Shown piece after piece: positions 2,858-49,534 of a stretch of DNA of 64,000 nucleotides. The position numbers were made by a program, and so were the translations under genes. Source of the stretch: a virus (Duplodnaviria; Caudoviricetes). Numbering within the stretch: the stretch's first letter is position 1; every line of letters begins with the position of its first letter. Below the pieces are notes generated by a model, which was given only the letters and a program-made list of their open reading frames with translations, did not search any database and had not been told where the DNA came from. The DNA lies in IMG/VR virus record IMGVR_UViG_3300014205_000175, positions 64,001 through 128,000 of that record; one strand, 5' to 3'.

Positions 2858-2896
2858 CATATATAATATATGAAGACTGTCACTAACGACATCTTC
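2858..2896 (+). promoter_or_regulatory. Early-promoter-like motif plus leader hairpin (loop ACTAAC)
   Basis: CATATATAATATATG followed by GAAGA(C)TGTC-ACTAAC-GACATCTTC; near-identical unit at 42300-42338. Confidence 0.75.
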
Positions 2897-2918
2897 TAAT
2901 TTCCAAGGAGCCGCCATC

Positions 2919-3485
2919 ATGAACGAGAAACTGCAGGAACTCGCTGATGAATGCCGCCGCAACTTCATGTTCTCAAAGAAAATCGAAGGTGGATACATCG
3001 GACCGAAGGGTGAGTTCATTCCTGTTCCTGCCGGCATTAGGCGCGTCGGCTTCAACTATGCCAATGGCAATGGTGGGTGGAGAATTGATCTAAAGTCAGG
3101 AAATAAAGCAAAAACCCGATTAGAAGTACGAGACTCACCTTTCCATCATGACTACATGGCCTCGTTGCAAGAAGCCCTCCGGCAACTTCATATACTCAAA
3201 CCAGAAGGGTTGTTGAAATCACAAACACGACATGCAGTAAAAGAACACGCTCACAAAAAAATAAAACTAGGAGTCGTCGGCGTTAGGTTCAATACCGCAT
3301 TTTCTCGCGGACATTGCTACCATTCTTTCATCGTAATGTGGGGGAAGAAGCGGAAAACAATACCTATCCCCCGCGACTACACCCAAGCTCAGTTTGATGC
3401 AGGTTTGGAAAAAGCCAAAACCATACGTCAGGAGTTTGAGCGCATCAAGTTGGAGAAGAGTCGCTTTACCACTGACAGTAAATAA
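2919..3485 (+). CDS. Putative AP2-like DNA-binding protein, paralogue 1 of 5
   Basis: 188 aa, very basic; FSKKIxGGYxGPKGEFIPVP N-terminus; two GV/GI-beta-strand/helix modules resembling AP2 domains; no HNH motif. Confidence 0.6.
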   Translation: MNEKLQELADECRRNFMFSKKIEGGYIGPKGEFIPVPAGIRRVGFNYANGNGGWRIDLKSGNKAKTRLEVRDSPFHHDYMASLQEALRQLHILKPEGLLKSQTRHAVKEHAHKKIKLGVVGVRFNTAFSRGHCYHSFIVMWGKKRKTIPIPRDYTQAQFDAGLEKAKTIRQEFERIKLEKSRFTTDSK

Positions 3486-3547
3486 TCTTCCGCCATATAC
3501 TAGGGCTAACACTACCGTCAGCCCACTAAATCTAAGGAGCTTCCAAT

Positions 3548-4114
3548 ATGGACAAGGAACTGAAAAAGCTTGCCGCTGAATGCCGTCACAAGTTCATGTT
3601 CTCAAAGAAAATCAAAGGTGGTTACATCGGGCCGAAAGGCGAGTTTATTCCTGTCCCGACAGGCGTCAGACGCAATGGCCGTGACTACGCCAACGCCAAC
3701 GGCGGATGGAGAATCAGCATAAGATCGAAACATAAAACAGAAATCCAGATAGATGTGCGGGATTATTGTTTCCATCACGATTACAAGGCTTCGTTACAAG
3801 AAGCCATTCGACAACTGAGTACTTTCAGACCGGAAGGGTTGCTAAAATCGCTAAAGCTACACACAGAAAAAGAACGCAGTCATAAAAAAATAAAACTAGG
3901 AATCTCTGGTGTTAGGTTCGAAACCTTGGACTGTAAGGGTCGACGTTATTATTATTTCACAGTAACGTGTGGGAAAACACAACGAAGAGTACCTGTCCCT
4001 CGTAACTACACCCAGGCTGAGTTTGATGCAGGTCTGGAAAAAGCCAAAACCATGCGTCAAGAGTTCGAACGTAACAAGATGGAGAAGAACCGTTTTACCG
4101 CTGACCTTAAATAA
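3548..4114 (+). CDS. Putative AP2-like DNA-binding protein, paralogue 2
   Basis: 188 aa, clearly alignable to 2919..3485; AAGGAG RBS. Confidence 0.6.
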   Translation: MDKELKKLAAECRHKFMFSKKIKGGYIGPKGEFIPVPTGVRRNGRDYANANGGWRISIRSKHKTEIQIDVRDYCFHHDYKASLQEAIRQLSTFRPEGLLKSLKLHTEKERSHKKIKLGISGVRFETLDCKGRRYYYFTVTCGKTQRRVPVPRNYTQAEFDAGLEKAKTMRQEFERNKMEKNRFTADLK

Positions 4115-4177
4115 TCGCTCGTTGTACATTCGGGTTAGCACTATCGCTAACCCGTTAATTTCTAAGGAACTACCACT

Positions 4178-4744
4178 ATGGACGAGAAACTGAAAAAACT
4201 GGCCGACGAATGCCGGTTAAATCGCATGTTTTCAAAGAAGACTGACGGGGGCTATTTTGGCCCGCGTGGAGAATTTATCCGTGTTCCTACCGGCATTGCG
4301 AGAATTGGTCGCAACTACGCTGAGAAATCCGGCGGGTGGAAAATTCACATCTTGAAAGCAGGCCAGCCTAAAATTATTATTCCGGTCAGGGATTCTCAAT
4401 TCAGTGGTGACTACATGGCTTCGCTACGTAAAGCCATTAAACAGTTGTCCGAACTCAAGCCCGACGGGGTGTTGCTTTCTAAAAAAGGTGTCAAGAAAAC
4501 CGAGGCTTCTAATAAACAGGTAAAGCTAGGAATGGCTGGCATCAGATTCAATCGTATCACTCGTAACGGAAAATCCTATTACTCATTTTCAGCGCTATGC
4601 GGGGATAAAAAGAAAACAGTCTGCATTCCTCCAGATTACACACCTGCGCAATTCGATGAAGGTTTAGCGAAAGTCAAAACTCTTCGAAGCGAATTTGAGC
4701 ATCAGCACACCCAAAACCGTCTTTTTACTGGCGGTAGTGTGTAA
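4178..4744 (+). CDS. Putative AP2-like DNA-binding protein, paralogue 3
   Basis: 188 aa, same motifs (FSKKTDGGYFGPRGEFI, YTPAQFDEGL). Confidence 0.6.
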   Translation: MDEKLKKLADECRLNRMFSKKTDGGYFGPRGEFIRVPTGIARIGRNYAEKSGGWKIHILKAGQPKIIIPVRDSQFSGDYMASLRKAIKQLSELKPDGVLLSKKGVKKTEASNKQVKLGMAGIRFNRITRNGKSYYSFSALCGDKKKTVCIPPDYTPAQFDEGLAKVKTLRSEFEHQHTQNRLFTGGSV

Positions 4745-4791
4745 CATATTTGAGCTAGTAATATCGTCAGTCCCCTATAGGAGCTTCTACC

Positions 4792-5358
4792 GTGAAACAA
4801 GACTTACAGAAGATCGCCGACGAGTGTCGCGAGAAACGCTGCTTCTCCAAGAAAATCGGGAAAGGATGTTTTGGTCCTAAAGGTGAATTTATTCCACTAC
4901 CTACGGGTATTAGTCGCAAAGGAAAAAATTTCATTTACTCAGGTAGCTGGATAGTCAGAACACATACAAGAAACTTGCCTCCGATCATATTCACATTCCT
5001 AGACTCTGATGTTCATTGTGATTACATGGTATCTTTGAGCAGAGCCATCGAGAAACTAAAAGAACTCAAGAATAATAAAGTGTTCGTGACAGGCAACCAC
5101 CTTAATCAACACGAAAGTAAAAGCAAGAAACTGAAATTTGATATCGTAGGAGTTAGTTTTCACCTCCATAAAAGACGAATGTGTAGACTGCCGGTTCCTA
5201 CTTTTACCGCGTCGTGCGGTTACAAACGGAAAAAATTCACACTGCCTTGTATCTACACCCAGGCACAGTTCGATTCCAAACTGAAAGAAGCTATAGCCTG
5301 GCGTAAGGAGATGGAAAAACAGCGGTTGCAGGAAGTCGGGTTCGATAAGTTCAAATAA
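4792..5358 (+). CDS. Putative AP2-like DNA-binding protein, paralogue 4
   Basis: 188 aa, GTG start with AGGAG RBS; most diverged of the four tandem copies. Confidence 0.6.
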   Translation: MKQDLQKIADECREKRCFSKKIGKGCFGPKGEFIPLPTGISRKGKNFIYSGSWIVRTHTRNLPPIIFTFLDSDVHCDYMVSLSRAIEKLKELKNNKVFVTGNHLNQHESKSKKLKFDIVGVSFHLHKRRMCRLPVPTFTASCGYKRKKFTLPCIYTQAQFDSKLKEAIAWRKEMEKQRLQEVGFDKFK

Positions 5359-5448
5359 CCGATAGCGATTCCGATGCACCTGCTCTGCTACTTTGGTCTA
5401 CTAGCCTTGTAGTGGGGTTATTCGGTTTTTAACTATATAGGTATTCCC

Positions 5449-5919
5449 ATGAAACAACTCCGCGATACCCTATCTAAAGTTCTTAGGTCGACCCATCCTC
5501 ACAGCGAAGTAGAGACTCTCATTGCCAATACCGTGACTAAGTACGACATACAGCGAATCATCGAACACGGTTCACTGATATCGTTGCCGGTTAAAGAGAG
5601 CTCTCCCTCTCGGCTAGGGGAATGCCACGCTATGACCGCTTATCAACACATGCTCAACCCTTCGATCCAAGTGTACAGTGGATTTTGCTTGATCTTTGAG
5701 GACGTAGTAGCTGATCAGTGGTATCACCATAGTTTCGCAGTACAAGATGGCTACATACTCGAACCCACTAACTGGATAAGAAATAAGTATTTTGGGGTTG
5801 CGTTAGACCGTCAACAGACCCGTGCATTCGTTCTTAACGAAGTGGATAAACTACTGGCATTAGCTAAATGGATGGATCTAGACACTGACTTGATCGCCAA
5901 CTATCGTCACACTCACTGA
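5449..5919 (+). CDS. Hypothetical protein, possible transglutaminase/papain-like fold
   Basis: GECH ... VYSGF ... WYHHSF ... GYILEPT spacing resembles a Cys-His-acid triad. Confidence 0.4.
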   Translation: MKQLRDTLSKVLRSTHPHSEVETLIANTVTKYDIQRIIEHGSLISLPVKESSPSRLGECHAMTAYQHMLNPSIQVYSGFCLIFEDVVADQWYHHSFAVQDGYILEPTNWIRNKYFGVALDRQQTRAFVLNEVDKLLALAKWMDLDTDLIANYRHTH

Positions 5920-5929
5920 GGTTCTTGTT

Positions 5930-6346
5930 ATGCTCATTTCAGCAGCAGCTATCCAGCATTTGCGTCAGCAAGAAATTCAGAAACATCCGGATGAACGCGT
6001 CTTGATAGGTTCTCCGTGTGAATATTTTTTCATGACCTACAATGAAGATTCTGATAATGTAGTCTGTGGTGTGAAAGCTGTAATCATAGAACTTAGCAAA
6101 TTTTCCACCGAGACTGAAGTGTTTGCTGCCGATCTAGCGATTCTATCTCACGTACCGGAAATGTACGTGCGGTGTGAAGATTTGAAAGTTGTTGGGAGGA
6201 AACTTACTGACGCCGATGGTGATGAGTCGATTTGTTTTATCGAGGCACAGCACTACAAAGAAATCATTCAAACCATTAATGACAACTATCGACCAAATTC
6301 CAGTAGTCTTCGGCTGGTTTGGTCTAACGATAAGAAAGATCAATAG
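5930..6346 (+). CDS. Hypothetical protein
   Basis: 138-aa ORF with GAGG RBS, in operon. Confidence 0.6.
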   Translation: MLISAAAIQHLRQQEIQKHPDERVLIGSPCEYFFMTYNEDSDNVVCGVKAVIIELSKFSTETEVFAADLAILSHVPEMYVRCEDLKVVGRKLTDADGDESICFIEAQHYKEIIQTINDNYRPNSSSLRLVWSNDKKDQ

Positions 6347-6356
6347 AGGTATCATC

Positions 6357-6980
6357 GTGCAAACCATCAAAGTCAATACTCGTGAAGAACTCATCGCTAT
6401 CGTCCGTGCTGCAGCACCTGACGCGGATCTGAATCACTTTGATGTGAGCGACATCACCGATATGTCGTGGGTATTCTGTAATAGTCAGTTCAACGGTGAC
6501 ATCTCGGGATGGGACGTCAGTCGTGTCACCGATATGGACGGTATGTTCAACAGTAGCTCGTTCAACGGCAATATCAGCCGATGGGATGTATCGCGCGTTA
6601 CTGATATGTATGCAATGTTCGCCGATAGCTCGTTCAATAGCGACATCTCAGGATGGGATGTATCGCACGTTACTGACATGGCTGGCATGTTCGGCGACAG
6701 TCAGTTCAACGGCGATATCAGTCACTGGAACGTATCAAATGTCACTGACATGGCTGGCATGTTCGCGTATAGTCACTTTAATGGTGATATCTCGGCGTGG
6801 GATGTGGGACAGGTTATCGACATGGAAGAGATGTTTGGCGATAGTCAGTTTAATGGTGACATTTCTAAATGGAACGTTAGCAACGTCATCAACATGCGAT
6901 GGATATTCAGCGACAGTCAGTTCAACGGTGATATCAGTAGTTGGAACATCAATCCCGGAGCTAGTGTGACACCAGCATAA
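6357..6980 (+). CDS. DUF285/BspA-type leucine-rich repeat protein
   Basis: About 7 tandem 24-aa repeats FNGDISxWDVSxVTDMxxMF. The likely GTG start at 6357 (GAGG RBS) matches the MQTIKV start of the paralogue at 24939. Confidence 0.85.
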   Translation: MQTIKVNTREELIAIVRAAAPDADLNHFDVSDITDMSWVFCNSQFNGDISGWDVSRVTDMDGMFNSSSFNGNISRWDVSRVTDMYAMFADSSFNSDISGWDVSHVTDMAGMFGDSQFNGDISHWNVSNVTDMAGMFAYSHFNGDISAWDVGQVIDMEEMFGDSQFNGDISKWNVSNVINMRWIFSDSQFNGDISSWNINPGASVTPA

Positions 6981-6989
6981 CTAATAAAC

Positions 6990-7046
6990 CATCCACAGGC
7001 GCAGCCTTAACGGGCTGCGCCTGTGGATGACAGAAATTATTTTTTT
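6990..7046 (+). terminator. Intrinsic terminator
   Basis: CATCCACAGGCGCAGCC / GGCTGCGCCTGTGGATG perfect long stem, with downstream T tract. Confidence 0.75.
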
Positions 7047-7086
7047 GACTGAACTACTATCTTTTGGTAACTTTAGGAAGACTATC

Positions 7087-7794
7087 ATGAAACGTAATGC
7101 TAAGGCCATCATAGCCAATCTGTACGAATCGAAAGATCACAAACTCTACACGCGTAAAGACTGCATTATTCAATTCCCCAAACGCTTTATCGATCGCGGC
7201 ATGGGGGAGATCGGTGCAGAGAACCACATCTTTGGCATCTACGCTATCATCATGGGAGATGAATACGCTGTGAGTGCCGTGCCATCGATGATCAAAACCG
7301 CACCGCATCAAATCAGTCAAATCGACATCGGCGAAGTGCCGTACTATAATTTCCATTATGCTGCTGGTAGTGCTATAATGGAAAACACTCATCTGGTTAA
7401 AAAAGAGACTCTCGTCTATAGCGTTATGGAAGAGTTCTTTTTGAAAGGTAATGTGCCGTGGTATATCAATTATGAAGACCTAGGCAAAATCTTCGACAAA
7501 GCCAAATATTACACAGGCAGTAACGTAGCGCAAAACTACGCTATTCTAGAATCGCTAGCTGCATATGTGTCACGATCAGCGAAAAAACGTAGTGTGCAAT
7601 ATCGTCACGTAATTAAAAAGCGTGAAGACCTCATCACTCCGCCTGAATACATCGGCATCTATGGTAATGTCTTTTACGCCGCTCCGGGTACGGTGGGTAA
7701 GCTCGCCGGCAGTTATTTCCAAGATGGTGTGGTGAGCGCGTTAACGCAACCTAACACCCAGTCTAGTCATGTTGAACAACTTTTACGCTCCTGA
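7087..7794 (+). CDS. Conserved phiKZ-like phage protein (probable virion protein)
   Basis: Likely start MKRNAK at 7087 with AGGA RBS; GNVPWY motif; function inferred from context. Confidence 0.55.
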   Translation: MKRNAKAIIANLYESKDHKLYTRKDCIIQFPKRFIDRGMGEIGAENHIFGIYAIIMGDEYAVSAVPSMIKTAPHQISQIDIGEVPYYNFHYAAGSAIMENTHLVKKETLVYSVMEEFFLKGNVPWYINYEDLGKIFDKAKYYTGSNVAQNYAILESLAAYVSRSAKKRSVQYRHVIKKREDLITPPEYIGIYGNVFYAAPGTVGKLAGSYFQDGVVSALTQPNTQSSHVEQLLRS

Positions 7795-7827
7795 CACTCT
7801 TTTAAACTCTACTAGGAAACCAGCAAA

Positions 7828-9069
7828 ATGCGCCATGTCTTAGATTTCAACACTGCTACAGAATCAGACGATCAGGTCAGCGACATGACAGATCTTCTTA
7901 CTTCCACTCCTAATTCCAGTGAGGATTTTCAAGAAGTCGAACGCTCTTTAGTTGTATTGGAACACCTTATCGATGTCTCAGAAATCATCAAAGCCAAAAA
8001 ACATATCTCCACTGAAGATTTAGCTTTTGTGCGTATCTGTAATGAAATGGCTGTAGCTGGCACGATGAGTTCGGCTGACCAGCTTCTACCTTCGATGGAG
8101 TCTTGGTCTAGTCCGGTCGTGGCTACCGAGGCTATCATGGAAGACGTAACAAGTGCCATCAAGCGAATCGCCCAGTATATCGGTTATGTGTTTAAACGTA
8201 CCGCTGACTCTTACCAGTATCATTTTACCATGTTTGAGCGTCAGTCTTCTGCTGTGGCGACAGCTCGTTACAACATCAAAAACTCCTCTGCCTCCAAATT
8301 TTCTATCGCTACTAAAGATAGCAAATATATGCACTATGGTAACAGCGAGAAAGTCAAAGATTTTCGCCAGTATCTGGATAAGTTTAAAGAAGTATCGGAG
8401 TTTTGCACTAAGTATAATAGTGCCTCGGCTGATTTTCTAAAACGCGATTTCATGCAGTCGTGGAAAAACCTAGTATCCCCTCTTACTGGCTATGATGAAA
8501 AATATCTCGAACTCTTCACCAGTTTGAAAGACTTTATCGAATCTGTAACAGCTATCAGTAGCACTACTCGTACCGGTAAGATGGGAGAGGCGGAGATTCT
8601 GCGCACTCCTAACTATCTAGGTATGTCACATGCCGAAATCTGTCAGCCTGCCAAAGGCTCTTATGATATTAAGTACGCTGAATCTTGTCGCCGTGTGCAT
8701 AAGTATTTCGCTGTGGATTTCATTCGCGATGACAAGTTTGAAACCTCTTTCTTTAAAAACACCGTGGTATTCGATAATGTCGCCAAAGCCGATATACTGA
8801 AAGCTCTAGATCTTTGCGATGAAATCATTCAAGCGTACCGTAAACACTTGGATCTGACTACGCGTCTATCACAAATGGGTTCTAGCTATGTGATGCTGGA
8901 TGCTATCAACACTGCGCTTTACCCTCCGGCGTGGTGGAAAGCTTGTCTGTCTAACTATCGCATTATGGTGCGTATGTCATCTATCATGACCGCAATGATC
9001 GAAGGTGCTTTCGTATATGCACGTGGCAACGTAGCTAAATGCGTCCAGTTGGCTAATAAAGCTAAATAA
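7828..9069 (+). CDS. Probable internal head protein with cleavable acidic propeptide
   Basis: Acidic N-terminus with S/A-x-E motifs (ATE, SME, ATE), the cleavage consensus of phiKZ-type prohead proteases. Confidence 0.55.
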   Translation: MRHVLDFNTATESDDQVSDMTDLLTSTPNSSEDFQEVERSLVVLEHLIDVSEIIKAKKHISTEDLAFVRICNEMAVAGTMSSADQLLPSMESWSSPVVATEAIMEDVTSAIKRIAQYIGYVFKRTADSYQYHFTMFERQSSAVATARYNIKNSSASKFSIATKDSKYMHYGNSEKVKDFRQYLDKFKEVSEFCTKYNSASADFLKRDFMQSWKNLVSPLTGYDEKYLELFTSLKDFIESVTAISSTTRTGKMGEAEILRTPNYLGMSHAEICQPAKGSYDIKYAESCRRVHKYFAVDFIRDDKFETSFFKNTVVFDNVAKADILKALDLCDEIIQAYRKHLDLTTRLSQMGSSYVMLDAINTALYPPAWWKACLSNYRIMVRMSSIMTAMIEGAFVYARGNVAKCVQLANKAK

Positions 9070-9089
9070 TGACTCATTAGGAGTGTATC

Positions 9090-9374
9090 ATAGACCCTTA
9101 CGTCAAAACCCGTCTATTCCTCTTGGAGCAGGAATACAAAGGGGTGCTGAAGACTCTAGACGAATATATCGCCACTCGTCCTATCGGCTACAAAACTAAA
9201 CTTAAAGCTCTGGTCGCCGATTTGAAGAGTGACTACCAGTGGTTGATTTCGTATATGGAACTACATCACGACGCAGCAGCGATGCAGGAGTTAACAAAGC
9301 ATTTACTGCATTACGTCGTCCCGACACATACTCAGATCAACGATAAGTTTCATGAACTCATGGCAGCTACGTAA
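9090..9374 (+). CDS. Hypothetical protein (start uncertain: ATA 9090 or TTG 9123)
   Basis: Open frame from 9081 to 9374; AGGAG lies 6 nt before an in-frame ATA. Confidence 0.45.
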   Translation: MDPYVKTRLFLLEQEYKGVLKTLDEYIATRPIGYKTKLKALVADLKSDYQWLISYMELHHDAAAMQELTKHLLHYVVPTHTQINDKFHELMAAT

Positions 9375-9439
9375 TGTCAGCCATCTCACTCGCCCTTACC
9401 GAAGGCGAGTGAGGTGGCTGACGGAAATTTTTACGATTC

Positions 9440-9454
9440 CATATATATTACGTG
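9440..9454 (+). promoter_or_regulatory. Early-promoter-like motif
   Basis: CATATATATTACGTG contains TATATTAC (phiKZ early consensus) and lies directly after a terminator hairpin (9376-9432). Confidence 0.75.
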
Positions 9455-9497
9455 AGAACTGCTAGCTCTACTTTTTCAAAATGCAAGGATGTAATCG

Positions 9498-9887
9498 ATG
9501 AAAACCTATCATATCGAAGGCGGTGAGACATTCGTGGTGGCGGGTGGAGTGGCATTAGCAATGACGACACTACGCGATGACCGACCATTGTTCTTGTGCT
9601 TTAACAACATCGACTGGTTTCCCGAACATCTACCTGATGCTCGTGAATACGTAACGTATGAAGTTATTCTGTGTGATGGTATCAAAAGCATCTCACTTAA
9701 TGACCGAGCCTACTGTGCGCTGTTGGGTTATGAATCAGCCTCGGGCAATTACCTACCCAGTGAGGAACTCGTAAGATTAATCGCAGACGACTACAGGCTG
9801 TTCATCAAAGCTGAGGATCACGAGCTGTCAGAGTGTTTCCTCATCGAACCAACCCAATACGTCACTCAAATCACCCGCATTAGCTAG
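9498..9887 (+). CDS. Hypothetical protein
   Basis: 129-aa ORF downstream of promoter motif, AAGGA RBS. Confidence 0.6.
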   Translation: MKTYHIEGGETFVVAGGVALAMTTLRDDRPLFLCFNNIDWFPEHLPDAREYVTYEVILCDGIKSISLNDRAYCALLGYESASGNYLPSEELVRLIADDYRLFIKAEDHELSECFLIEPTQYVTQITRIS

Positions 9888-9915
9888 GGTCTATTATTAA
9901 CAAAGGAGTATCAGC

Positions 9916-10254
9916 ATGAGCACAACAGTGAGCGTAGAAAACAAGTACCGAGAACTTCTGGCCATTGCCAAAAAAGTGAGCGCTCTGGTGGCTGAGCATC
10001 CTGAGTATCTGCATGAGGATGCCGATGGTGGAGGACACAAATGGTTTCATGCCGAACACCCGGTCCAAGACGAACTCGATACGTTCCTATGCGGTAACTT
10101 CATCACCGACAAAGGCCAGTACTCGACGCTTTACTATATTCTTCAGCACCGTGCCAGACAACATGGTATACGGCTGTGGACCGGGGAGCGCGACAGCTTC
10201 GGACCCCTCGTAAGCTGCATGAGCTACGATGGTTGGGCGTTCTCGTTCGGGTGA
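9916..10254 (+). CDS. Hypothetical protein
   Basis: 112-aa ORF, AAGGAG RBS, followed by terminator 10269-10302. Confidence 0.65.
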   Translation: MSTTVSVENKYRELLAIAKKVSALVAEHPEYLHEDADGGGHKWFHAEHPVQDELDTFLCGNFITDKGQYSTLYYILQHRARQHGIRLWTGERDSFGPLVSCMSYDGWAFSFG

Positions 10255-10355
10255 GTGTCAAGCCCAGTGCTACAGCCCCAGTGGGGCTGTAGTGCTTTTT
10301 TTCACCTCTGTCTTCGGTAAATCGTATGGTCATCACATATATCTAAAGGTGCATC

Positions 10356-11117: not shown

Positions 11118-11228
11118 ATCTTACGCCCATCACACCGCTAAACAGGTGGTGTGATGGGCAATATTTCTAGCGTCCGTTGATGTTATAAGGAGGTGTGTGG
11201 TAGAATTTATCTGACTTATCTTTGAACG

Positions 11229-11243
11229 CATATATAGTACTTG
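11229..11243 (+). promoter_or_regulatory. Early-promoter-like motif
   Basis: CATATATAGTACTTG; matches the repeated 15-mer. Confidence 0.65.
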
Positions 11244-11326
11244 GCAATATAGCCCTAGATCTTAAATTACCTTACTAGCTTACACTTATAGTGTAGTTTG
11301 CCCCTCAATCACTCCAAGAGTCTCAC

Positions 11327-11532
11327 ATGCCTCAAAAAGCATACCGAGTGCGTCTGTACTCGACTCCTGCGGAGCAGGAGGTACTACGTCGTACCATAGG
11401 TACTATGCGAGTTACGCCTGATCGCTCACATATACCGCAGGGCATGCGGAAATCAACGCTTGTGGAGAGTAGGTGCTGTAAGGCCGCTCAGTGAAACAAG
11501 AATCCTCTCGCCAGTAGGCAGAGGAGTGTCAA
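11327..11532 (+). mobile_element. tnpB: Internally deleted IS200/IS605-family (tnpB) element: TnpB N-terminus fused to the element's 3' end and right end
   Basis: 55-codon ORF 11327-11494 begins MPQKAYRVRLYSTPAEQEVLRRTIG (TnpB N-terminal KAYxxRLYP--EQ---L-RT-G motif). The end reads GAAT-CCTCTCGCC-AGTA-GGCAGAGG-AGTG-TCAA, the IS605-type right-end layout (GAAT guide, hairpin, TCAA). Confidence 0.8.
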
Positions 11533-12899: not shown

Positions 12900-12983
12900 C
12901 TCGTTAGTGTCCTTCCCACCGACTATTAAGTCCGGTGGGAAGGGTGTCTTTTTTTCATTGTATCACACTAGGTTGCACTATAA

Positions 12984-17768: not shown

Positions 17769-17775
17769 GGATGCT

Positions 17776-24788: not shown

Positions 24789-24872
24789 TACCGTCACTCT
24801 TCCGGCCGTATAAAGGTCGGAAGAGTGATTTTACGTTTTTAGGTTGAGTGGTAGTGAAGTTTTTTTCAGTCA

Positions 24873-24911
24873 CATATATATTACGTGAAGACTGCCGCTC
24901 TGGCGTCTTTC
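24873..24911 (+). promoter_or_regulatory. Early-promoter-like motif plus leader hairpin
   Basis: CATATATATTACGTG followed by GAAGAC(T)GCC-GCTCT-GGCGTCTTTC, a variant of the 2872 and 42314 hairpins. Confidence 0.7.
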
Positions 24912-24938: not shown

Positions 24939-25499
24939 ATGCAAACCATCAAAGTCACCAGCCGCGAAGAGCTTATCAACATCATTCATCGAGCGCCATT
25001 GAACGCAGATTTGAACCATCTGGACGTAAGTGCAGTCACGGACATGAGTCTGGTGTTTGCCGGCAGTCGGTTCAACGGCGACATTTCGAAGTGGGATGTA
25101 TCCCGAGTTACCAATATGAACTCTATGTTCTCTGATGGCTGGTTTACTGGCGATATCTCACAGTGGGATGTCAGTCAGGTAACTGACATGAACGGTGTGT
25201 TTTCATGTAGCCAGTTTAATGGCGACATCTCGTGCTGGAATGTCTCATCCGTCAAAGACATGGGATGGATGTTTGCTGGCAGTCAGTTTAACAGCGACAT
25301 CTCGCGCTGGGATGTCAGTCACGTAACCGATATGCGTTGGATGTTCCACAAAAGTCTGTTCAACGGCGACATTTCGAAGTGGGATGTGGGTAACGTTAAG
25401 ATCATGAAGGCGATGTTCAGATGCAGTCGGTTCAATAGTGACATCAGTCGTTGGAGTATTGGTCCCGATACGGACGTCAACGGCATGTTCGACAAGTAA
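24939..25499 (+). CDS. DUF285/BspA-type leucine-rich repeat protein, paralogue 2
   Basis: About 6 repeats of FNGDISxWDVSxVTDM; AGGAG RBS before ATG 24939. Confidence 0.85.
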   Translation: MQTIKVTSREELINIIHRAPLNADLNHLDVSAVTDMSLVFAGSRFNGDISKWDVSRVTNMNSMFSDGWFTGDISQWDVSQVTDMNGVFSCSQFNGDISCWNVSSVKDMGWMFAGSQFNSDISRWDVSHVTDMRWMFHKSLFNGDISKWDVGNVKIMKAMFRCSRFNSDISRWSIGPDTDVNGMFDK

Positions 25500-41060: not shown

Positions 41061-41156
41061 TTGAAGCTCCTCATGGAATTTAACTATCCACTGGATGAGT
41101 TGGATTTAAAAACCGTAACCACCAGAGGCTCATTAGGCCTCTGGTGGTTACGGTCG

Positions 41157-42245
41157 CTATGTATCTAGCAGTGCGTCTAGAAGATCATTGGTCTCGGTTA
41201 ACTGCTCTTTCGGTAACACATTAGCAAGCACACTATCGCGACGTAGCCGACGAATATCTCGTTGCATGCGGTTGATGAGTTGCTGGTTACGTCGCACTGA
41301 ACTCACTCCACCTAGATCGATGAGATACTTCATCACCGTCGTGCGACTGAGTGTTACTGCCCACCATACCTGACGCGTCGGGGCTATTTCAGGCAGCTGT
41401 AAAGACTCAGCCATGTCCCGACCTGATATGCTAGGCAGAGCAGACAGGAGCCATTCGTACGCCATGTTTTTGTCATAGTAGTCCTCGGTGAGTTTGAGTA
41501 ACACTCCGTCGAGCTTGGTGGCGTAATCGACAACCGGAAACGGATGCTTGAAACGCGCTTCACCCATCTCTACATCGTACAAAAGCCGCATCAGGCGATT
41601 CATCACGACGATATCGGTGTGACGATAGAGCATGTTGGGGAGCACGTACATATGCACGAAATGCGTGATACCGAGCATACCGCCATCGAGTAGCTGGCGT
41701 CTTAAGAGCTGATCGCGTAAAAAGCAACGCAGCTGTACAGCCAACAACGGGATATTGATACTGATGACTGAAAAGCCCGTGTCAGTGCCGCTGGATCGAC
41801 CATTGCCAAGCATGAAGCCTAGATCGCTTTTCGGGTGCCAGATCGTCGAGACGGCATTAATACGTTGCCAGTTTCTCTCGGCATAGCTAGCGTCAAAATA
41901 ACTGTCTTCGTAGATGATGACTTCGTGACTACCTACGCCGTAGAAAGCACCGTGATGCACTGCTCCGGTTTCGATGTCGCTAGTCATACGGAAAGCTTTA
42001 GCGATGTACGGGGCTCTAGCGCGCGTGCTCTCGATGAAGCGATCCAGCTCGTACTGCATCGGAGTGTCGACGTGGGTTAGGAGCCGCACGAGAAAGTGCT
42101 GGTTCTTGACTGCATAGACACGGTTGTTATAGTAGTCTTGAATCGTTAAAAGCTCGCGCAGATACGTGCCCTTGATGTATTCGAATTCTGCTGGCATGCG
42201 TTGCGCATTAGGGGAGCGCGCCACCCGTTGAAATAATTCTAACAT
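41157..42245 (-). CDS. Conserved phiKZ-like virion protein (gp52-like)
   Basis: 362 aa; VKNQHFLVRLL and FVHMYVLPNML; synteny between polymerase and chimallin regions. Confidence 0.55.
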   Translation of the reverse strand: MLELFQRVARSPNAQRMPAEFEYIKGTYLRELLTIQDYYNNRVYAVKNQHFLVRLLTHVDTPMQYELDRFIESTRARAPYIAKAFRMTSDIETGAVHHGAFYGVGSHEVIIYEDSYFDASYAERNWQRINAVSTIWHPKSDLGFMLGNGRSSGTDTGFSVISINIPLLAVQLRCFLRDQLLRRQLLDGGMLGITHFVHMYVLPNMLYRHTDIVVMNRLMRLLYDVEMGEARFKHPFPVVDYATKLDGVLLKLTEDYYDKNMAYEWLLSALPSISGRDMAESLQLPEIAPTRQVWWAVTLSRTTVMKYLIDLGGVSSVRRNQQLINRMQRDIRRLRRDSVLANVLPKEQLTETNDLLDALLDT

Positions 42246-42299
42246 TCGCCCAACCTCAGTATGGCTTCTCAGAGGATTTATCTGAAAAAAACGTAGTCA

Positions 42300-42338
42300 C
42301 ATATATATTCAATGAAGACTGTCACTACCGACATCTTC
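42300..42338 (+). promoter_or_regulatory. Early-promoter-like motif plus leader hairpin (loop ACTACC)
   Basis: CATATATATTCAATG followed by GAAGA(C)TGTC-ACTACC-GACATCTTC. Confidence 0.75.
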
Positions 42339-42365
42339 TCACATCTGCCCTAAGGAGCTTCCATC

Positions 42366-42617
42366 ATGACCAGCACCACTAGCACCATCGCCATTTTTCA
42401 AAACAAAGAAGACGCCGTGAAGCTCGTCGAGAGCAGGGTTGCTGCCGGCGAATACAGCATCGAAAAAATCGAGAGTTTGGGACTAGTGTGGCTGCACCCG
42501 AATCCCGATATGACAGCAGAACAAGATAGTGTTTGCGGCACAAGCAAAGAAGAAGTCATCGAGCTGTATGCTACAGTCTGCGCCCAATCCATCGGCTACG
42601 ACTGGGCATTCGAGTAA
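42366..42617 (+). CDS. Small hypothetical early protein
   Basis: 83 aa, AAGGAG RBS. Confidence 0.65.
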   Translation: MTSTTSTIAIFQNKEDAVKLVESRVAAGEYSIEKIESLGLVWLHPNPDMTAEQDSVCGTSKEEVIELYATVCAQSIGYDWAFE

Positions 42618-42695
42618 CCTTTAGCCATCAAATCAAAAGAGAGCCACCGTGGGCTCTCTTATCGTCAGCACCCTATCTCTAAGGAGTAATGCACC

Positions 42696-43931
42696 ATGGC
42701 TTCCATCAAAGACCTTCTCATCACCCGTGTCGAAATCAACGCCCTGAAAGATCAGCAGGATAGTAAAATTGACGTGGCTCTTTTTAAGAGTGTTCGTCAG
42801 GATGACGCATATTTTTGTGTCAGGGTTTCTGATGAATCGTCTGCATCTGAGTTCAGGTGCTGTGACGAATACGGTCAAATCAGTAACGCTTTTATCTTTG
42901 AGCGTGAGCTGGTGCTGGAAAGTAAAAATCCGTGGAAGGATATCGATTGCGAAAAACTAATCGGTAACTATGGTGCACTGATGCATCATTCGTCATACAA
43001 ATTTCCCTACCCAACTCCTCGCCGTATTCATCTCACGGTAGAAAAAGATACCGTGTGGAGAGCGATTTATAAATCTCTGTATCTTTCTTCTCGGGATGAG
43101 GGCAGTGTCGCTTTTGTGGGGTCGAGCAAAGACCGCTACAATGACATAACTAAAAAGAAATATACCGGAGGGTTCTTCGGTTCGTCTTGCACAGATATCC
43201 TTAACCACTATTTCGACAACATCCGAGCTATGTCGAATGACGGTAAAGAGGTTACTGAGGACGAGTGTTTGAAAGATATAGACGAACTCGTCAACCATAT
43301 TCTGCAGGGTATGGAAACCGATTTAGGTGATCGCATGCCGTTCTGGGTTGATATTAATGACACCTGGGATTCCATCATGAAAAAAGCACAGCAACCTATC
43401 GAGGCAGTAACTAACATCGAGGAGAAGGAAATGGATAAAACTGTGACTAACGAAGCCTCGGAACCTGAAATCAACGTAATGACAGTGAATCCTAACAGTG
43501 TCGTTGATGGCGACGCTTCTTCGCTGCAGGCCGTACCTTACCCAGAACTCTATGAGTTGCTGAGGAAGTATCTGAAAAACGAGCTTTATATGGTTCAGGC
43601 TACTCGCGGCATTAATCTGGCTTTCGGACAACTCGACAATATCGTTAGTTCTGATCAATGGGTGACTCTGGTGAAGATGCTCGATGGTGAAAACAGCGAT
43701 GTGGCTATCGAGTTGCTGCAAAAGTGCTGCACACTAGAGCCGGGTGTATCAGTAGAGCCTCTGGAGAAAAGGTTGGCTCGCGTGGAAAGTTTCAGTGTGA
43801 GTTTTCGGGAATTTACCCGTAAGCAACTTCCGAAGGATTTTCTTCCTATGTCGCAGGAGAGCTATTGTTATCTAAACTATGAAGCGGCTAAAGAGGTTGT
43901 CGAGACACTCTGCGTGCTAATGGCTAAATAA
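42696..43931 (+). CDS. Uncharacterised ~400-aa paralogue family, member 1
   Basis: IKDLLITR, LIGNYGALM, ILNHYFD, ILQGMETDLGDRM. Confidence 0.75.
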   Translation: MASIKDLLITRVEINALKDQQDSKIDVALFKSVRQDDAYFCVRVSDESSASEFRCCDEYGQISNAFIFERELVLESKNPWKDIDCEKLIGNYGALMHHSSYKFPYPTPRRIHLTVEKDTVWRAIYKSLYLSSRDEGSVAFVGSSKDRYNDITKKKYTGGFFGSSCTDILNHYFDNIRAMSNDGKEVTEDECLKDIDELVNHILQGMETDLGDRMPFWVDINDTWDSIMKKAQQPIEAVTNIEEKEMDKTVTNEASEPEINVMTVNPNSVVDGDASSLQAVPYPELYELLRKYLKNELYMVQATRGINLAFGQLDNIVSSDQWVTLVKMLDGENSDVAIELLQKCCTLEPGVSVEPLEKRLARVESFSVSFREFTRKQLPKDFLPMSQESYCYLNYEAAKEVVETLCVLMAK

Positions 43932-44021
43932 CATCGACCATGGTTTAGCTGGCGTCTATCGCAAATAGACGATAGGCGCCGGCGACATTGCAATGTTTTC
44001 TTATATCTAGGAGCTTCCATC

Positions 44022-45197
44022 ATGTCTACCATCAAAAACCTCATCGTCACCCGTGCACAAATCAACGCCCTGAGGGACAATCTTGACAGTGTCTGTAAGG
44101 TTGGTGTGTTTAAAAGTAAATGCGGATATGGTATATATTTTTATACGTTGCCGCCGTTTACAATTGAATTCACTGAAGAGATTCGTGACAAGACTGCTAT
44201 CCTTAATACCTTCAATTTTTATGGAACCAGGGAAATTGCACAGGGAGATCTATATATCAGCGACCGTAAAGATCTTATTAGCAACTACGGCGCACTGATG
44301 CAGTATGTAGAAAGTCCAGCTCGTTGCTTAAACCAACGTCGGCTGTTTGGTATGATATATGACGAACTGCATGCCGCATTACCCATTAGCCGTGACCGGT
44401 ATCCTGTCCCAGTCTCGGGCTGGCTTTTCAATGGTCGCAGTAAGGCTCGCTATAATACGGTAACGAAGCCTCGTACTGTCGTTATGCATTTCAAACTCAG
44501 CAGCAATATCGGTATCCTCAGGCATTACTTCGATGAGGTAACAGGGGTACAGGACTGGATCAATATTGAAACTAACACGGTAAACCTCACGACCATCGAA
44601 GAACTCACCGATTACATTCTGCAATGCATGGAAACTGACCTAGGAGATAACATGCTGATTACAGTCAACAACAAAGACACGTGGCAGTCCATTAACGAAA
44701 AGGTAGCCGTCGTTACGGCTGATCAACCCATCACAGAAGACCCCCCAGAAACTAATACCGTTCCTGCGTCTAGCCCAGAGGGTTCGGATTTTCTACGTGG
44801 TCTCGTCAACGACTATCTGAAGAACAAGCGCCAGAAGGTGCTGATTACTCTCCAACGGCACGAAGAAGATAAAGAGCTGTCAGACCCACTCAGTAACCGT
44901 GACTGGGACGTCATCTTTGCCTACATTCATCAAGAGCGTTTCTCTGAAGCGATCAGCGCCCTTTGTTCTATCGCCAAGATCGAACCCGACTCACCCCACC
45001 AGGTCTTCGATCGCGCAACTGCTCGCATCGGCTCGAACAGCACTCGTTTTCGTGAATATGCTCGGCGCTACTTTTGCGACGCAATGGCACAGCGGGCAAA
45101 AACCGAGGTCGGTACTACGATCGCTTATCTCGACTCAGTGACTGCCAAAGAAATCGTTCTAACAGTCGTGGCGCTACGTCCTGTAGTGGACTGCTGA
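44022..45197 (+). CDS. Uncharacterised ~400-aa paralogue family, member 2
   Basis: IKNLIVTR, LISNYGALM, ILRHYFD, DYILQCMETDLGDNM. Confidence 0.75.
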   Translation: MSTIKNLIVTRAQINALRDNLDSVCKVGVFKSKCGYGIYFYTLPPFTIEFTEEIRDKTAILNTFNFYGTREIAQGDLYISDRKDLISNYGALMQYVESPARCLNQRRLFGMIYDELHAALPISRDRYPVPVSGWLFNGRSKARYNTVTKPRTVVMHFKLSSNIGILRHYFDEVTGVQDWINIETNTVNLTTIEELTDYILQCMETDLGDNMLITVNNKDTWQSINEKVAVVTADQPITEDPPETNTVPASSPEGSDFLRGLVNDYLKNKRQKVLITLQRHEEDKELSDPLSNRDWDVIFAYIHQERFSEAISALCSIAKIEPDSPHQVFDRATARIGSNSTRFREYARRYFCDAMAQRAKTEVGTTIAYLDSVTAKEIVLTVVALRPVVDC

Positions 45198-45223
45198 CCA
45201 ACTACCCTCTTAGGAGCTTTAAA

Positions 45224-45448
45224 ATGACCAAAACCATAAAAGCCAAACTGAGTACACAAGACGAAGTGGTGACGGTGGAGGGTAGTGAGCTGCGGCTCTA
45301 TACCAATGGCGAAGGCGAGCTCTTCATCGAGACCAGCATGCGAACCTACCGCATGAAAGAATACGGGGGTTGTCTGCATGTGGCTGCCAGCCAGATGACG
45401 ATTAAACCCTACCACACTGCCACCGCTGCCGGCATTCTGATCAGCTAA
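45224..45448 (+). CDS. Small hypothetical protein
   Basis: Start MTKTIK at 45224 behind AGGAG; followed by terminator 45463-45502. Confidence 0.6.
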   Translation: MTKTIKAKLSTQDEVVTVEGSELRLYTNGEGELFIETSMRTYRMKEYGGCLHVAASQMTIKPYHTATAAGILIS

Positions 45449-45582
45449 GTGAGCTGGTCTCGATACACCTCTCGACCTTTATGGCCGGAGGTGTATTTTT
45501 TTGAATCCGTTACAGTCTTATATATAATGCATGGATACTAACACTATTGTTGGTACACCTCTACCCTCAGGAGCTCTATAGC

Positions 45583-46785
45583 ATGAAACTCAAAGACCTT
45601 ATTGTCACTCGCAGCGAAATCAACGAACTCACCCACCAGCCTCAGCAACTGGCTGGTTTGCTGGTAGCGTGCTATGAAAGTGAGCATGCGGATGACGTAT
45701 TTTTCTACTCTCGCGTTCGTTTTCATGAACTACCCGAAAGTGAAGTAGAAAATGATAACGTATATGCTCTTATCAGTCAAAATTTCACCTGCAAAGGAAT
45801 GACGGTACTCACTAGCAGCGATCCAATCTTCGATGGCCGTCGTCAGAAGCTATTGGGTAATTATGGCGCTCTGCTCGATTATATGCAGATCACGAACAAG
45901 CATGGCGACCAGAGCTATCCTGCCGCTACCGTGTATGACGTTGTGCGTGATGAAGTGCTTAGTTACATGGCCTACATTCCAGCATGGAGAGGTTCAGTAC
46001 AGACGATAGTCGGTATCAGTAAGCCGGCTTTTAATACGGCAAGCAAGAAAAGAAGAATCTTAGTGAACATGAACAAAAATAAGAACCCTGAGCTACTTAA
46101 CTACTATTTCGATACGCATGTTGAGACCCCGTCCACAGTGCTTCCCAATATTGAGGATGACACTGTAGATCTAAAAGGAGCAGGCTTAGTTTCGATCGTT
46201 GACTACATCATGCAATGTATGGAAACGGAGTGCGGTGATAAGATGCGGTATTTCGTCAACTCTACTGCGATATGGCGATCGCTTTGGGTAGAACGTCCGC
46301 AGGTGTCTAACAAAGGCGGCTCCTTTACTACGTCCGCAATCAATTATCTGCATGTAGTTGAAAAACTTACAGCCGTTTCGACATTTGAACAAGAGAGGCG
46401 ATATCAACTCTATGCCATAGCCATGCGGTACCTGAAAAAGGAGAAGCAACGCGCGGTGCTTGAGGCTGGTTGGTTGATAGATGACGAAGACACTCCAGCC
46501 ATCAGTCGCGAGCAATGGGACGAGACAGTAGTAGGGCTGGTGCGTGTAGGCGATCTCGACAAAGCAGCACAAACGCTGCAAGCGCTATGCACGGTAAAGC
46601 TACCGTCGTCGTTGACTGCCTTTGATAGGAAAACACGCCATATTCCTGAAAGCAGTAACGGTTTTCGTCAGTTTATGCTGGAGGAGCTCAGACAAAGCCC
46701 GGAAGCCAACCCTTCGCCGAGCGAATACCTGAGCTCCGAAGCAGCCCGTGAGATGATTATGGTAATCCGTTCGCTGATACTTTAA
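45583..46785 (+). CDS. Uncharacterised ~400-aa paralogue family, member 3
   Basis: Start MKLKDLIVTR at 45583 (AGGAG); LLGNYGALL, LLNYYFD, DYIMQCMETECGDKM. Confidence 0.75.
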   Translation: MKLKDLIVTRSEINELTHQPQQLAGLLVACYESEHADDVFFYSRVRFHELPESEVENDNVYALISQNFTCKGMTVLTSSDPIFDGRRQKLLGNYGALLDYMQITNKHGDQSYPAATVYDVVRDEVLSYMAYIPAWRGSVQTIVGISKPAFNTASKKRRILVNMNKNKNPELLNYYFDTHVETPSTVLPNIEDDTVDLKGAGLVSIVDYIMQCMETECGDKMRYFVNSTAIWRSLWVERPQVSNKGGSFTTSAINYLHVVEKLTAVSTFEQERRYQLYAIAMRYLKKEKQRAVLEAGWLIDDEDTPAISREQWDETVVGLVRVGDLDKAAQTLQALCTVKLPSSLTAFDRKTRHIPESSNGFRQFMLEELRQSPEANPSPSEYLSSEAAREMIMVIRSLIL

Positions 46786-46872
46786 AACCCCTCAGTAGTT
46801 ACACGCCCATACCCACTACGCCCGTCACTATTGATGGGCGTAGTCAATTAATCTTTACGGAGTTTTTATAGC

Positions 46873-47973
46873 ATGAAACTCGCCGACGTCATTTTCACTC
46901 GCAGTCAAATTGCTGAACTCGCTATCAGTTCAGAGACCGTTCCTCTACCCGTTCTTGGGTATTATCAAAGCCGACATACTGATGGTGCATCTTTCTATAT
47001 TCGTACTAGTGAAGACGAGTTTAAGAAATGCGCAGAATACGCCAGCATCAACCGTAACTTCAATTTCTGGCCGGATGTAGGATGTGGACAGTGTAACGAG
47101 CTAATATGCAGTGCTTTGTTACTGGGTAATCACGGTGCGGTAATGGATTACATTGATCTGAAAGAAAAACGTAACGATAGCCAGGAGACTAGTCTTTACG
47201 ATGTACTGCTAATCAAAGTAGCTGAGCTGGTATCGATATTCAAACACTACAATATCTTTTATGGCATTAGTAAAGCCCGATATAACCATAACCGTGCACC
47301 AAGAACTATCGGCATTTGCATCCGGCCAGAGATGTCGGTCTCGATGTTTACTCATTACTTCGATCAGATGGAGGGGTTAAATGACGGCGATGAAGATAAA
47401 GCAACTCATCTAACAGGCTTAGGTCCGATCACCGACTATATCATGCAGTGTATGGAAGAGGACCTAGGAGATAGGATGCCCTATGCGGTTCAACACGGCA
47501 GTACGTGGAACTCGGTGATACGGGAGATACAAACACCAGTTCCTAGTCGACACGTTTTAGAGCGACAGTGCATCGATGAGATGTATTCGATCTTAGCCGA
47601 TTACCTGCAACAAAAACGTGTCGACTACCTTAGGTCACGTGGGATGAATGTCGAAACCGTTTTAAACTTCGATCCATTAACCCCAGAACGCTGGGATGAT
47701 ATCATCCAGCGAATAGCCAGAGGGTTTTCAGATTCAGCCGTCGACGAATTGCTAAAACTAGCAACGTTGAAAATGGCTACGGTAGCAAGTGTGTTCGATG
47801 AGAAAACCAAGGGTCTTAGAGAGGATGTTTACGGCGAATTCATGGGTTTCATGCGTGATCGTCTAGGTGATATTGCTGAACGATCTATGTGTGGCGCATA
47901 TAGATGTTTGACCCCTGAGGAAGCTCGTAAAATTATCGACATTGCATCGGCTTTAATAGGAAAAACATCTTGA
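46873..47973 (+). CDS. Uncharacterised ~400-aa paralogue family, member 4
   Basis: LADVIFTR, LLGNHGAVM, FTHYFD, DYIMQCMEEDLGDRM. Confidence 0.75.
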   Translation: MKLADVIFTRSQIAELAISSETVPLPVLGYYQSRHTDGASFYIRTSEDEFKKCAEYASINRNFNFWPDVGCGQCNELICSALLLGNHGAVMDYIDLKEKRNDSQETSLYDVLLIKVAELVSIFKHYNIFYGISKARYNHNRAPRTIGICIRPEMSVSMFTHYFDQMEGLNDGDEDKATHLTGLGPITDYIMQCMEEDLGDRMPYAVQHGSTWNSVIREIQTPVPSRHVLERQCIDEMYSILADYLQQKRVDYLRSRGMNVETVLNFDPLTPERWDDIIQRIARGFSDSAVDELLKLATLKMATVASVFDEKTKGLREDVYGEFMGFMRDRLGDIAERSMCGAYRCLTPEEARKIIDIASALIGKTS

Positions 47974-48185
47974 GCGAAACCCTCGGTACCGTAGAGTTAG
48001 TGCCATGTGCAGTATGTAGCACAACAGCTAGGGAGGTCATTATGAGCAATATGGTAGGCTGTTACTGCGACAAGTGCGGTACAGGCATCAGTGTGTTGGT
48101 GGAGGTTCGCGAAGATAACTGTCAGGCAGTCAAAAACCAGCTACGCCAAGCTTGGAATAAACTACAAGGCATACGTATATCTTAG
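47970..48185 (+). CDS. Lar-like (restriction alleviation) zinc-ribbon protein
   Basis: LVPCAVC ... CYCDKCG ... AWNK, the CxxC/CxxC/WN layout of the Lar family. Confidence 0.55.
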   Translation: MSETLGTVELVPCAVCSTTAREVIMSNMVGCYCDKCGTGISVLVEVREDNCQAVKNQLRQAWNKLQGIRIS

Positions 48186-48305
48186 CCGTATCGTCACTCC
48201 CCATACCCGACATTATAGCCGGGTATGGGGAGTGTATGATTACATGATTTTTTTAAATACGGTTCATATAACATGAGCACCACTGATACTAATAAGGAAC
48301 TCGTC

Positions 48306-49424
48306 ATGAATGATCTCGCATCACTGGTTGTAACGCGCGCTGCTATCAACGATCTTCTAGGTGGAAAATTTGGTGAAGATATCGAGCTCTATGCTTTTAA
48401 AAGTGTCAATGATGACCATGTGCACTTCTTCTCTGCCGTAGACTATAAAGAGTTTAAACAGCGCTACCAGCTGAGCGATGTTTTTCGGCATTTTAATTTC
48501 TGGGGCCGGACACGTCTTTACGATGCCTCGGTGTTTGGTATACGCAATCGTAAAAATCTCCTTGGCAACCATGGCGCTGTGCTCGATTATATGCGCAGCA
48601 AAGAACATTTACCGACTACACAGCAAAAAACCGCACCGACGGTGTATGATGCGATATGGCAAGATTTATATACGCGAGTTTTTGATGGCAGTATGAATAA
48701 CCCCCTAAGGCATATTTTTTACGGCGTGAATAAAAAGCATTACGGCACCGGCTCTCAACGATGTTTTGTTCGCATGCCGGTAACCGATAAAGCTAATCTG
48801 GACATTTTGCACCACTATTTCGATGAGATCTCAGAGACTGAGCATTGTTGCGATAACACTGATAAACATATGAAAGGTTTGGATGACATTGCCGATTATA
48901 TCGTGCAGTGCATGGAGTTGGAGTTAGGGGCAGACATGCAGTTTTTCGCTCATGGTAAAAATACCTGGCAGGCTCTCATGGCAGCTACTCCATCCCAGAC
49001 ACTAAAAGCCGTAGCGGTATCGGCCGAGCAGACAGCTTCTACCGATTACATCTATCCCCTTTTGGTTAAATATCTGTATACTCAGCGTAATCAGGCACTG
49101 ACTGAAAATGGAGTATTAGTTAGCGATATTGACATTCCGATTTTGGATGACGTAACACGAGCTAGTTTTCTAACGCATTTAAATAACGGTCACACCGAAC
49201 TAGCGATCATTGAGTTAATGGACGCTTGCACTATCGAATTGCCTAGCTTGGGAGAAGAGTTCGATCTTAAAACGACTGACCTTAGATGTAACAGTGTCGT
49301 TTTTAGAAAGTTCATCCGCACGCATCTACCTGATGGTGTCCAGAAGAAAGTTCGTTGCTATTTGACAACCGAGACTGCCAAAGAAATCGTTTTGACTCTG
49401 GAAGCTTTGCTCGTTAAACGTTAA
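48306..49424 (+). CDS. Uncharacterised ~400-aa paralogue family, member 5
   Basis: Likely start MNDLASLVVTR at 48306; LLGNHGAVL, ILHHYFD, DYIVQCMELELGADM. Confidence 0.75.
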   Translation: MNDLASLVVTRAAINDLLGGKFGEDIELYAFKSVNDDHVHFFSAVDYKEFKQRYQLSDVFRHFNFWGRTRLYDASVFGIRNRKNLLGNHGAVLDYMRSKEHLPTTQQKTAPTVYDAIWQDLYTRVFDGSMNNPLRHIFYGVNKKHYGTGSQRCFVRMPVTDKANLDILHHYFDEISETEHCCDNTDKHMKGLDDIADYIVQCMELELGADMQFFAHGKNTWQALMAATPSQTLKAVAVSAEQTASTDYIYPLLVKYLYTQRNQALTENGVLVSDIDIPILDDVTRASFLTHLNNGHTELAIIELMDACTIELPSLGEEFDLKTTDLRCNSVVFRKFIRTHLPDGVQKKVRCYLTTETAKEIVLTLEALLVKR

Positions 49425-49495
49425 TTACTACCCTCATCCTCGTCCGGCCCTGCTGGCTGGCGAGGATGAGGATGTATTGGATTTTTTTAAAATGC

Positions 49496-49534
49496 CATAT
49501 ATATTACATGGAGATACCGCACTCACGCGATATC
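49496..49534 (+). promoter_or_regulatory. Early-promoter-like motif plus leader hairpin (loop ACTCAC)
   Basis: CATATATATTACATG then GATA(C)CGC-ACTCAC-GCG(A)TATC. Confidence 0.7.

Follow-up and report, generated by a model that had tools for sequence, protein, structure and literature searches.

Why should genes that bear no relation to one another be preceded by hairpins that share little more than their loop? This question is raised by a stretch of viral DNA of 64,000 nucleotides (hereafter the window), which corresponds to bases 64001-128000 of a virus record of 202,826 nt in total (48% GC) obtained from a landfill metagenome. Because it encodes chimallin (ChmA; 51935-53767, plus strand), we assign the genome to a nucleus-forming chimallivirus without close cultured relative, its phiKZ-type DNA polymerase sharing about 40% identity with the nearest cultured phages. 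A preliminary description of the window had listed seven intergenic hairpins with nearly the same hexaloop, and our analysis agrees with it on their coordinates, loops and folding. Judged from the sequences at hand, these hairpins are an undescribed and lineage-restricted element, characterized by the loop ACUAHY, that stands at the head of early accessory transcripts. We favor the reading that each belongs to a portable cassette of promoter, hairpin and ribosome-binding site (RBS), in which the stem-loop at the transcript's very start would block decay that depends on the 5′ end and the loop would be kept for the sake of folding; we give this reading about an even chance of being right, which places first among the explanations the "5′ stability cap" that the preliminary description had offered as one option.

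The loop was found 27 times, in 11 copies in the phage genome (four of them outside the window, at genome positions 136018, 138153, 147076 and 193631) and in 16 copies in its closest relative, 14 of which stand directly behind an intact promoter. This relative was retrieved twice independently, by a pattern scan and by a ChmA search; a 164.6-kb and a 41.6-kb contig of IMG/VR represent complementary parts of its genome (40% GC), whose ChmA is 74% identical to that of the window, the median protein identity being 57%. The joint consensus is Y-ACUAHY-G, in which A1 and U3 are invariant, C2 is found in 26 of the 27 copies and the fourth position is A in as many, with a single C; the closing pair is C-G in 21 copies, U-G in five and G-C in one, and the commonest loop is ACUAUC. 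As the information content of these loops is inflated by the choice of sites through the motif itself, we rely on the promoter-shuffle test and on a census of hexaloops, which are not circular. The loop is indeed enriched in early leaders: within 32 nt of the transcript start (+1), the motif occurs at 20 of 49 early promoters of the two phages (expected 0.69, maximum 3), and the hairpin is formed at 18 of them, compared with 0.04 (maximum 1) in dinucleotide shuffles. When hexaloops were counted in all leaders with an RBS irrespective of any motif, ACTA came top in both phages (9 of 96 and 10 of 84; the next reached 3), and a scan of the whole genome yielded ten stable loop hairpins on the strand of the early genes versus one on the opposite strand, for 0-2 in Markov controls. 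Chance is thus excluded as the source of the ACTA-loop hairpins. Stems vary under this loop in a concerted manner: over 22 distinct sites, 89.8% of the cells of the four loop-adjacent pairs are paired and 23 double changes are seen, compensatory ones being present at all four pairs, while none of 500 shuffles reaches the observed level and slid registers are paired at 22-53%. These covariation counts are inflated by kinship among sites; nonetheless, the inner stems involved number 20 distinct ones or more, and the variation of stems noticed in the preliminary description is real.

The position of the hairpin can be read against the early promoters, which we located with a matrix built from the phage genome (threshold 13 bits); 25 sites exceeded this threshold, compared with two in a Markov control, and nearly all end in a conserved TG. 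In phiKZ, we recovered 32 early promoters, the published number (PMC8244752), with the same TG lying 6-7 nt downstream of the TATATTAC core, and the AT-rich motif of 201phi2-1 lies about 10 bp upstream of the start (PMC11512511). On account of this spacing, and by analogy with both phages, we take the conserved G of the motif as the likely +1; de novo recovery of early promoters in FLC9 and RAY yielded none. The preliminary description had placed four of the seven hairpins immediately after the promoter motif, and this holds, the conserved G falling at positions 2872, 42314, 45533 and 49510. Of the 19 distinct copies linked to a promoter, 16 have a stem that pairs the putative +1, and two leave three nucleotides free. 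Two classes can be told apart: in the short one the closing base lies at +3/+4 and the stem is 3-4 bp overall, and in the long one the closing base lies at +9 to +11 and a bulge or mismatch is usual, many long stems being bulged 3-5 bp beneath the loop. Since the closing base sits at either of these distances while the +1 is paired in most copies, the fixed feature would be the paired 5′ end rather than the distance of the loop. Between stem end and RBS, a linker of several to about 25 nt is left that cannot be aligned among copies, which makes the role of translational operator once proposed for the hairpin unlikely. Terminator-like hairpins lie upstream of several promoters, and the conserved hairpin itself mostly lacks a U-tract.

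The cassettes of the window, all on the plus strand, illustrate this arrangement. The first begins with a terminator-like hairpin that ends the upstream gene (2795-2837, ends approximate), directly followed by a virion-RNA-polymerase type of early promoter (2852-2872, 25.6 bits), the hairpin (2872-2896; loop ACTAAC at 2882-2887, closing pair C2881-G2888, +1 paired) and the RBS (2905-2910) of a gene for a protein of 188 residues that starts at 2919 and opens a tandem array of four AP2-like paralogues (2919-5358). Within this array, hairpins without promoter recur at 3503-3524 (loop ACTACC) and at 4131-4154 (perfect 9-bp stem, loop ACTATC). The two sites regarded as degenerate in the preliminary description proved to be so: a decayed paralogous copy at 4752-4772 reads T-AATATC-G, and a stem of the same family at 24887-24910 bears the divergent loop GCTCT behind an early promoter (the unit spanning 24867-24910) ahead of a DUF285 gene. 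A further promoter (42294-42314) leads into the hairpin 42314-42338 (loop ACTACC), which precedes a gene for an 83-residue protein and an array of genes for proteins of about 400 residues. At the next cassette, a terminator-like hairpin with U-tract (45462-45497, ends approximate) precedes the promoter (45513-45533) and a hairpin of loop ACTATT (45533-45557, core 45536-45555), whose loop is found again at 46815-46844 on a rebuilt stem of 12-13 bp, with a promoter remnant upstream at the usual spacing. The last one comprises a terminator-like hairpin (49432-49472, ends approximate), a promoter (49490-49510) and a hairpin of loop ACTCAC (49513-49534) ahead of a nucleotide kinase gene; the orthologous leader of the relative has another stem and the loop ACTATC. 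Three of the seven hairpins thus lack an intact promoter (3503, 4131 and 46815), as do the copy at genome position 138153 and one copy in the relative; in most of these five, a promoter remnant survives at the usual spacing and the stem is stronger, and a late-promoter motif sought at them was not found. It is worth mentioning that at 46796-46844 the AT-rich promoter core appears to have been swapped for a GC-rich hexamer complementary to the hairpin's 3′ arm, so that an alternative 8-bp pairing can form, an arrangement that is possibly the product of a template switch. A perfect hairpin of the short class at 51618-51633 lies inside the coding sequence of a DHH-phosphoesterase, and the relative does not share it; we regard it as a probable chance occurrence. 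Genes behind the hairpins are mostly accessory, namely the AP2-like array, the array of about 400 residues, small orphans and the kinase, to which many DUF285 proteins are added in the relative. Promoter leaders of chmA, phuZ and non-virion RNA polymerase (nvRNAP) subunits are without the loop.

To what extent can the recurrence of the loop be put down to copying? The preliminary description had called the stems mostly unrelated and had argued that duplication alone does not account for the hairpins, and both statements hold in part. Stems do vary under the same loop, and yet several of them are copies of one cassette: the hairpins at 2872 and 42314 are identical at 24 of 25 positions within a 41-nt near-match between their cassettes, the same stem family is found at 24887 and at two sites outside the window, the hairpin at 45536 nearly equals that at genome position 147076, and tandem duplication of the 2872 unit gave those at 3503, 4131 and 4752. 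In the relative, cassettes match one another over 79-88 nt at about 90%. Copying therefore accounts for the spread of the hairpin. It does not account for the survival of the loop, since the latter persists at 46815, where the stem has been wholly rebuilt (as compared with 45536), in short and long hairpins alike, and in two leaders with orthologues (kinase and genome position 193631) despite stems that differ between the phages; from these comparisons, we conclude that Y-ACUAHY-G is under selection. An account in which the hairpin alone is selected, and the loop is neutral and only looks conserved through recent homogenization of cassettes, can point to the clear cassette families. It is largely refuted, and in our judgment quite improbable, in view of the 20 or more distinct inner stems that bear the loop, of linkers between hairpin and RBS that defy alignment, and of the presence of the loop in both the short and the long class and in phages of 48% and 40% GC.

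Farther from this lineage, the hairpin and its loop part company. In relatives whose ChmA is at most 62% identical, the promoter is shared and a 5′ hairpin is frequent, and the loops are different (sampling being thin here); one more distant relative combines the stem architecture of the long class with a GNRA tetraloop (one case). The leader of chmA carries a 5′-terminal hairpin in four phages (window 51878-51899; L056, L066 and L067) with four different loops, that of the window being other than ACUAHY, and 5′ hairpins with other loops are also kept in the orthologous leader pair 76297/74234. Because relatives keep 5′ hairpins with other loops, the paired 5′ end is best regarded as a habit of the clade and the ACUAHY loop as particular to the present lineage. 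Early leaders of phiKZ are no more structured than their shuffles, and a local check of phiKZ, FLC9 and RAY returned 0-2 loop hairpins per strand, that is, the chance level. Further hairpin-bearing relatives were not found when collections of metagenomes, genomes and viruses were scanned with the pattern; a viral contig (L271:854-885) presents a single promoter-like motif with a loop hairpin, has no protein match to the phage and is left unplaced. Ahead of one core gene, the window has the promoter and no hairpin (56164-56212), and the relative has a promoter remnant with the loop hairpin (L055 around 15642, G001 35542). The long leaders of the relative possess, in addition, a second hairpin just ahead of the RBS with the loop CGGTAY (L057:15890-15905 and three sister leaders; G001 75601, 58766 and 7171, G002 9411), absent from the leaders of the window phage; a variant lies at G001 81588, and one copy has the loop CGCTAA. 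Kissing between this second hairpin and the ACUAHY loop was considered and set aside, no covariation being seen in the one divergent copy.

How, then, might a portable cassette with a protective 5′ stem-loop work? Its order would be, often, a terminator, then the promoter of the virion RNA polymerase, the hairpin from +1 onward, a short unstructured linker and the RBS, and recombination would have spread it in front of accessory genes. The hairpin would fold while the RNA exits the polymerase, so that the first nucleotide becomes paired, and removal of pyrophosphate and subsequent 5′-end-dependent decay (by RppH and RNase E, or by RNase J) would be blocked in the cytoplasm; the pairing of first nucleotides is indeed a known block to attack of this type by RppH and RNase E/J (PMC3997798). 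Translation of early chimallivirus mRNAs takes place in the cytoplasm and is not coupled to transcription (PMC13282480), which is why such protection would matter. Copies without promoter may shield ends made by processing within operons. As for the loop, it would most likely act as a structured cap, an A-Y pair beneath a CUAH turn, that enables stems of 3-4 bp to fold. Several points weigh against this proposal. To our knowledge, the Turner parameters hold no bonus for ACUAHY, and the near invariance of four loop bases goes beyond the apparent need of a simple cap; promoterless copies keep the loop on stems that are already strong (9-13 bp), which fits binding better than help in folding. Furthermore, the inner A-C mismatch turns into G-T on the template, so that the fold of some copies is better there as DNA, and the early leaders of phiKZ do without hairpins.

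The main rival to this proposal, which the strength of the loop conservation makes tempting, sees ACUAHY instead as a sequence-specific binding site through which a protein of the phage or the host would mark part of the early accessory mRNAs, so that they are protected, translated with preference, spared from host shut-off or let out of the early infection vesicle; this is possible, if doubtful. ACUA is nearly invariant over freely covarying stems, is kept on the rebuilt stem at 46815, in promoterless internal copies and in orthologous leaders of two phages of 57% median protein identity, and often surmounts a bulge 3-5 bp below in the long class, and its restriction to one lineage resembles that of boxB/N pairs (PMC12550061). 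Set against this, no convincing binder emerged among the candidates, and stems of the same family persist with unrelated loops at three promoters of the phage genome. The AP2-like paralogues, once put forward as binders, fail as a shared one, as the arrays of 188 and of about 400 residues are both absent from a relative with 16 loop copies. ChmC, the other suggestion (probably encoded at 60070-60699, as judged from gene order only), is a weak candidate: crosslinking and immunoprecipitation (eCLIP) of the PhiPA3 protein uncovered no motif, and its binding discriminated little between phage mRNAs (PMC11077065). A search of the phage genome and relative for ANTAR proteins (PF03861) gave no match, though the host may encode one, and a search for CsrA/RsmA (PF02599) likewise gave none, nor does the loop contain a GGA. 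A general export tag, also among the earlier suggestions, is unlikely, considering that the core early leaders named above lack the loop. A narrower version, in which the loop is a lineage-specific "self" tag on the 5′ ends of early accessory mRNAs, by which a phage protein that is co-injected or made very early would protect, export or selectively translate them, seems to us rather unlikely.

Should the element act as DNA, either as a hairpin in the opened template that the virion RNA polymerase would read in promoter escape or as a single-stranded recombination signal for cassette shuffling, one would understand that the template-strand loop amounts to a standard pair plus a tetraloop and that four of seven tested copies clearly fold better there as DNA. 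PeSL stem-loops have been proposed as recombination targets (PMC2839356), and one copy of the relative (L061 around 3200-3230, G001 142511), with a G-C closing pair, has a palindrome that reaches 7 bp back into the promoter. Most stems nevertheless begin exactly at the presumed +1, U-G closing pairs would become C-A mismatches on the template, and the motif stands at 7 of the 24 promoters of the phage genome, so that the polymerase has no need of it. Within stems, G-U exceeds A-C by 9 to 3 and two of three distinct U-G closings accompany an A-U inner pair, which favors the sense strand; sense RNA also folds better in 17 of 25 copies. We infer that RNA is the working molecule and hold an action as DNA to be unlikely; a double-stranded DNA operator is ruled out by arms that vary while the spacer is conserved. 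The least probable proposal in our eyes, and a very remote one, is that of a boxB-like site recruiting an N-like factor for terminator read-through by the virion RNA polymerase. Its promoter-proximal location and the variant ACUAAC, which has CUAAC in common with the CUAACC of phi21 boxB, speak for it; the commonest loop, ACUAUC, is in another register, no boxA is conserved and flanks are not conserved either, so that the antitermination role suggested at the outset is unlikely. In addition, RNA polymerases of jumbo phages work without stable binding of host polymerase subunits (PMC13282480), and the long nvRNAP operons, which would profit most from antitermination, are devoid of the loop.

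Comparison with known systems sharpens the novelty of the element. Known 5′ protective stem-loops of bacteria rely on pairing and not on the sequence of the loop, whereas here four loop bases are conserved over at least 20 stems in two phages. The resemblance to those of ompA, papA and aprE would lie in the paired first nucleotides of the transcript and in the separate RBS region (PMC3997798). PeSL cassettes of T4-type phages are similarly repeated early-promoter cassettes ahead of accessory genes, often with a terminator upstream and with a similarity prone to recombination; they differ in having a sigma70-like promoter, in place of the phiKZ-type AT-rich motif of the virion RNA polymerase ending in a conserved TG, and a stem-loop that is a poly-G/poly-C terminator of upstream transcription, in place of a hairpin downstream of the promoter and within the transcript (PMC2839356). 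The phi21 boxB, a CUAACC hexaloop bound by N (PMC12550061), is like our hairpin promoter-proximal and close to one of its variants, and unlike it in register and consensus, our hairpin being present in many copies per genome without boxA; no N-like protein turned up, no search aimed at N having been made. With the ANTAR hexaloop (PMC8934654) it shares an A at position 1, a short stem and the location in leaders, but at its fourth position, where the ANTAR motif demands a G, it has only A (or C), and no terminator overlaps it. No Rfam family matches the hairpins at gathering score, and a literature search gave no description of the ACUAHY loop in the searchable literature. The CUUCGG intergenic hairpins of T4 reportedly combine a conserved loop and closing pair with variable stems as a thermodynamic cap (Tuerk et al. 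1988); CUUCGG is a tetraloop of proven stability, while the stability of the ACUAHY hexaloop is only proposed here.

A few other features of these genomes deserve mention. A fifth, more distant homologue of the 188-residue AP2-like proteins (about 35-39% identity) is encoded at 50239-50772, away from the tandem array. There is an expansion of DUF285 (PF03382) repeat proteins that lack signal-like N-termini (window 24939-25499 and many G001 loci), a strong one in the relative, and their genes often lie behind loop-hairpin cassettes. A group I intron (Rfam RF00028, 64 bits) occupies 55570-55903, within the nvRNAP beta′ region. A groundwater sequencing run contains a near-identical phage that shows no differences across the covered part and hence adds no variation.

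The element is known from two uncultured phage species, and within that scope its loop offers a sharp experimental handle on how chimalliviruses protect and export their mRNAs and have them preferred over those of the host. An invariant loop on covarying stems allows the role of the loop to be separated from that of the stem, and thereby a cap from a tag. If the loop is a cap, it may represent a new stable hexaloop for stems of 3-4 bp; if it is a tag, it would provide a route to a new RNA-binding factor and would be the first known sequence-specific mRNA signal of a nucleus-forming phage.

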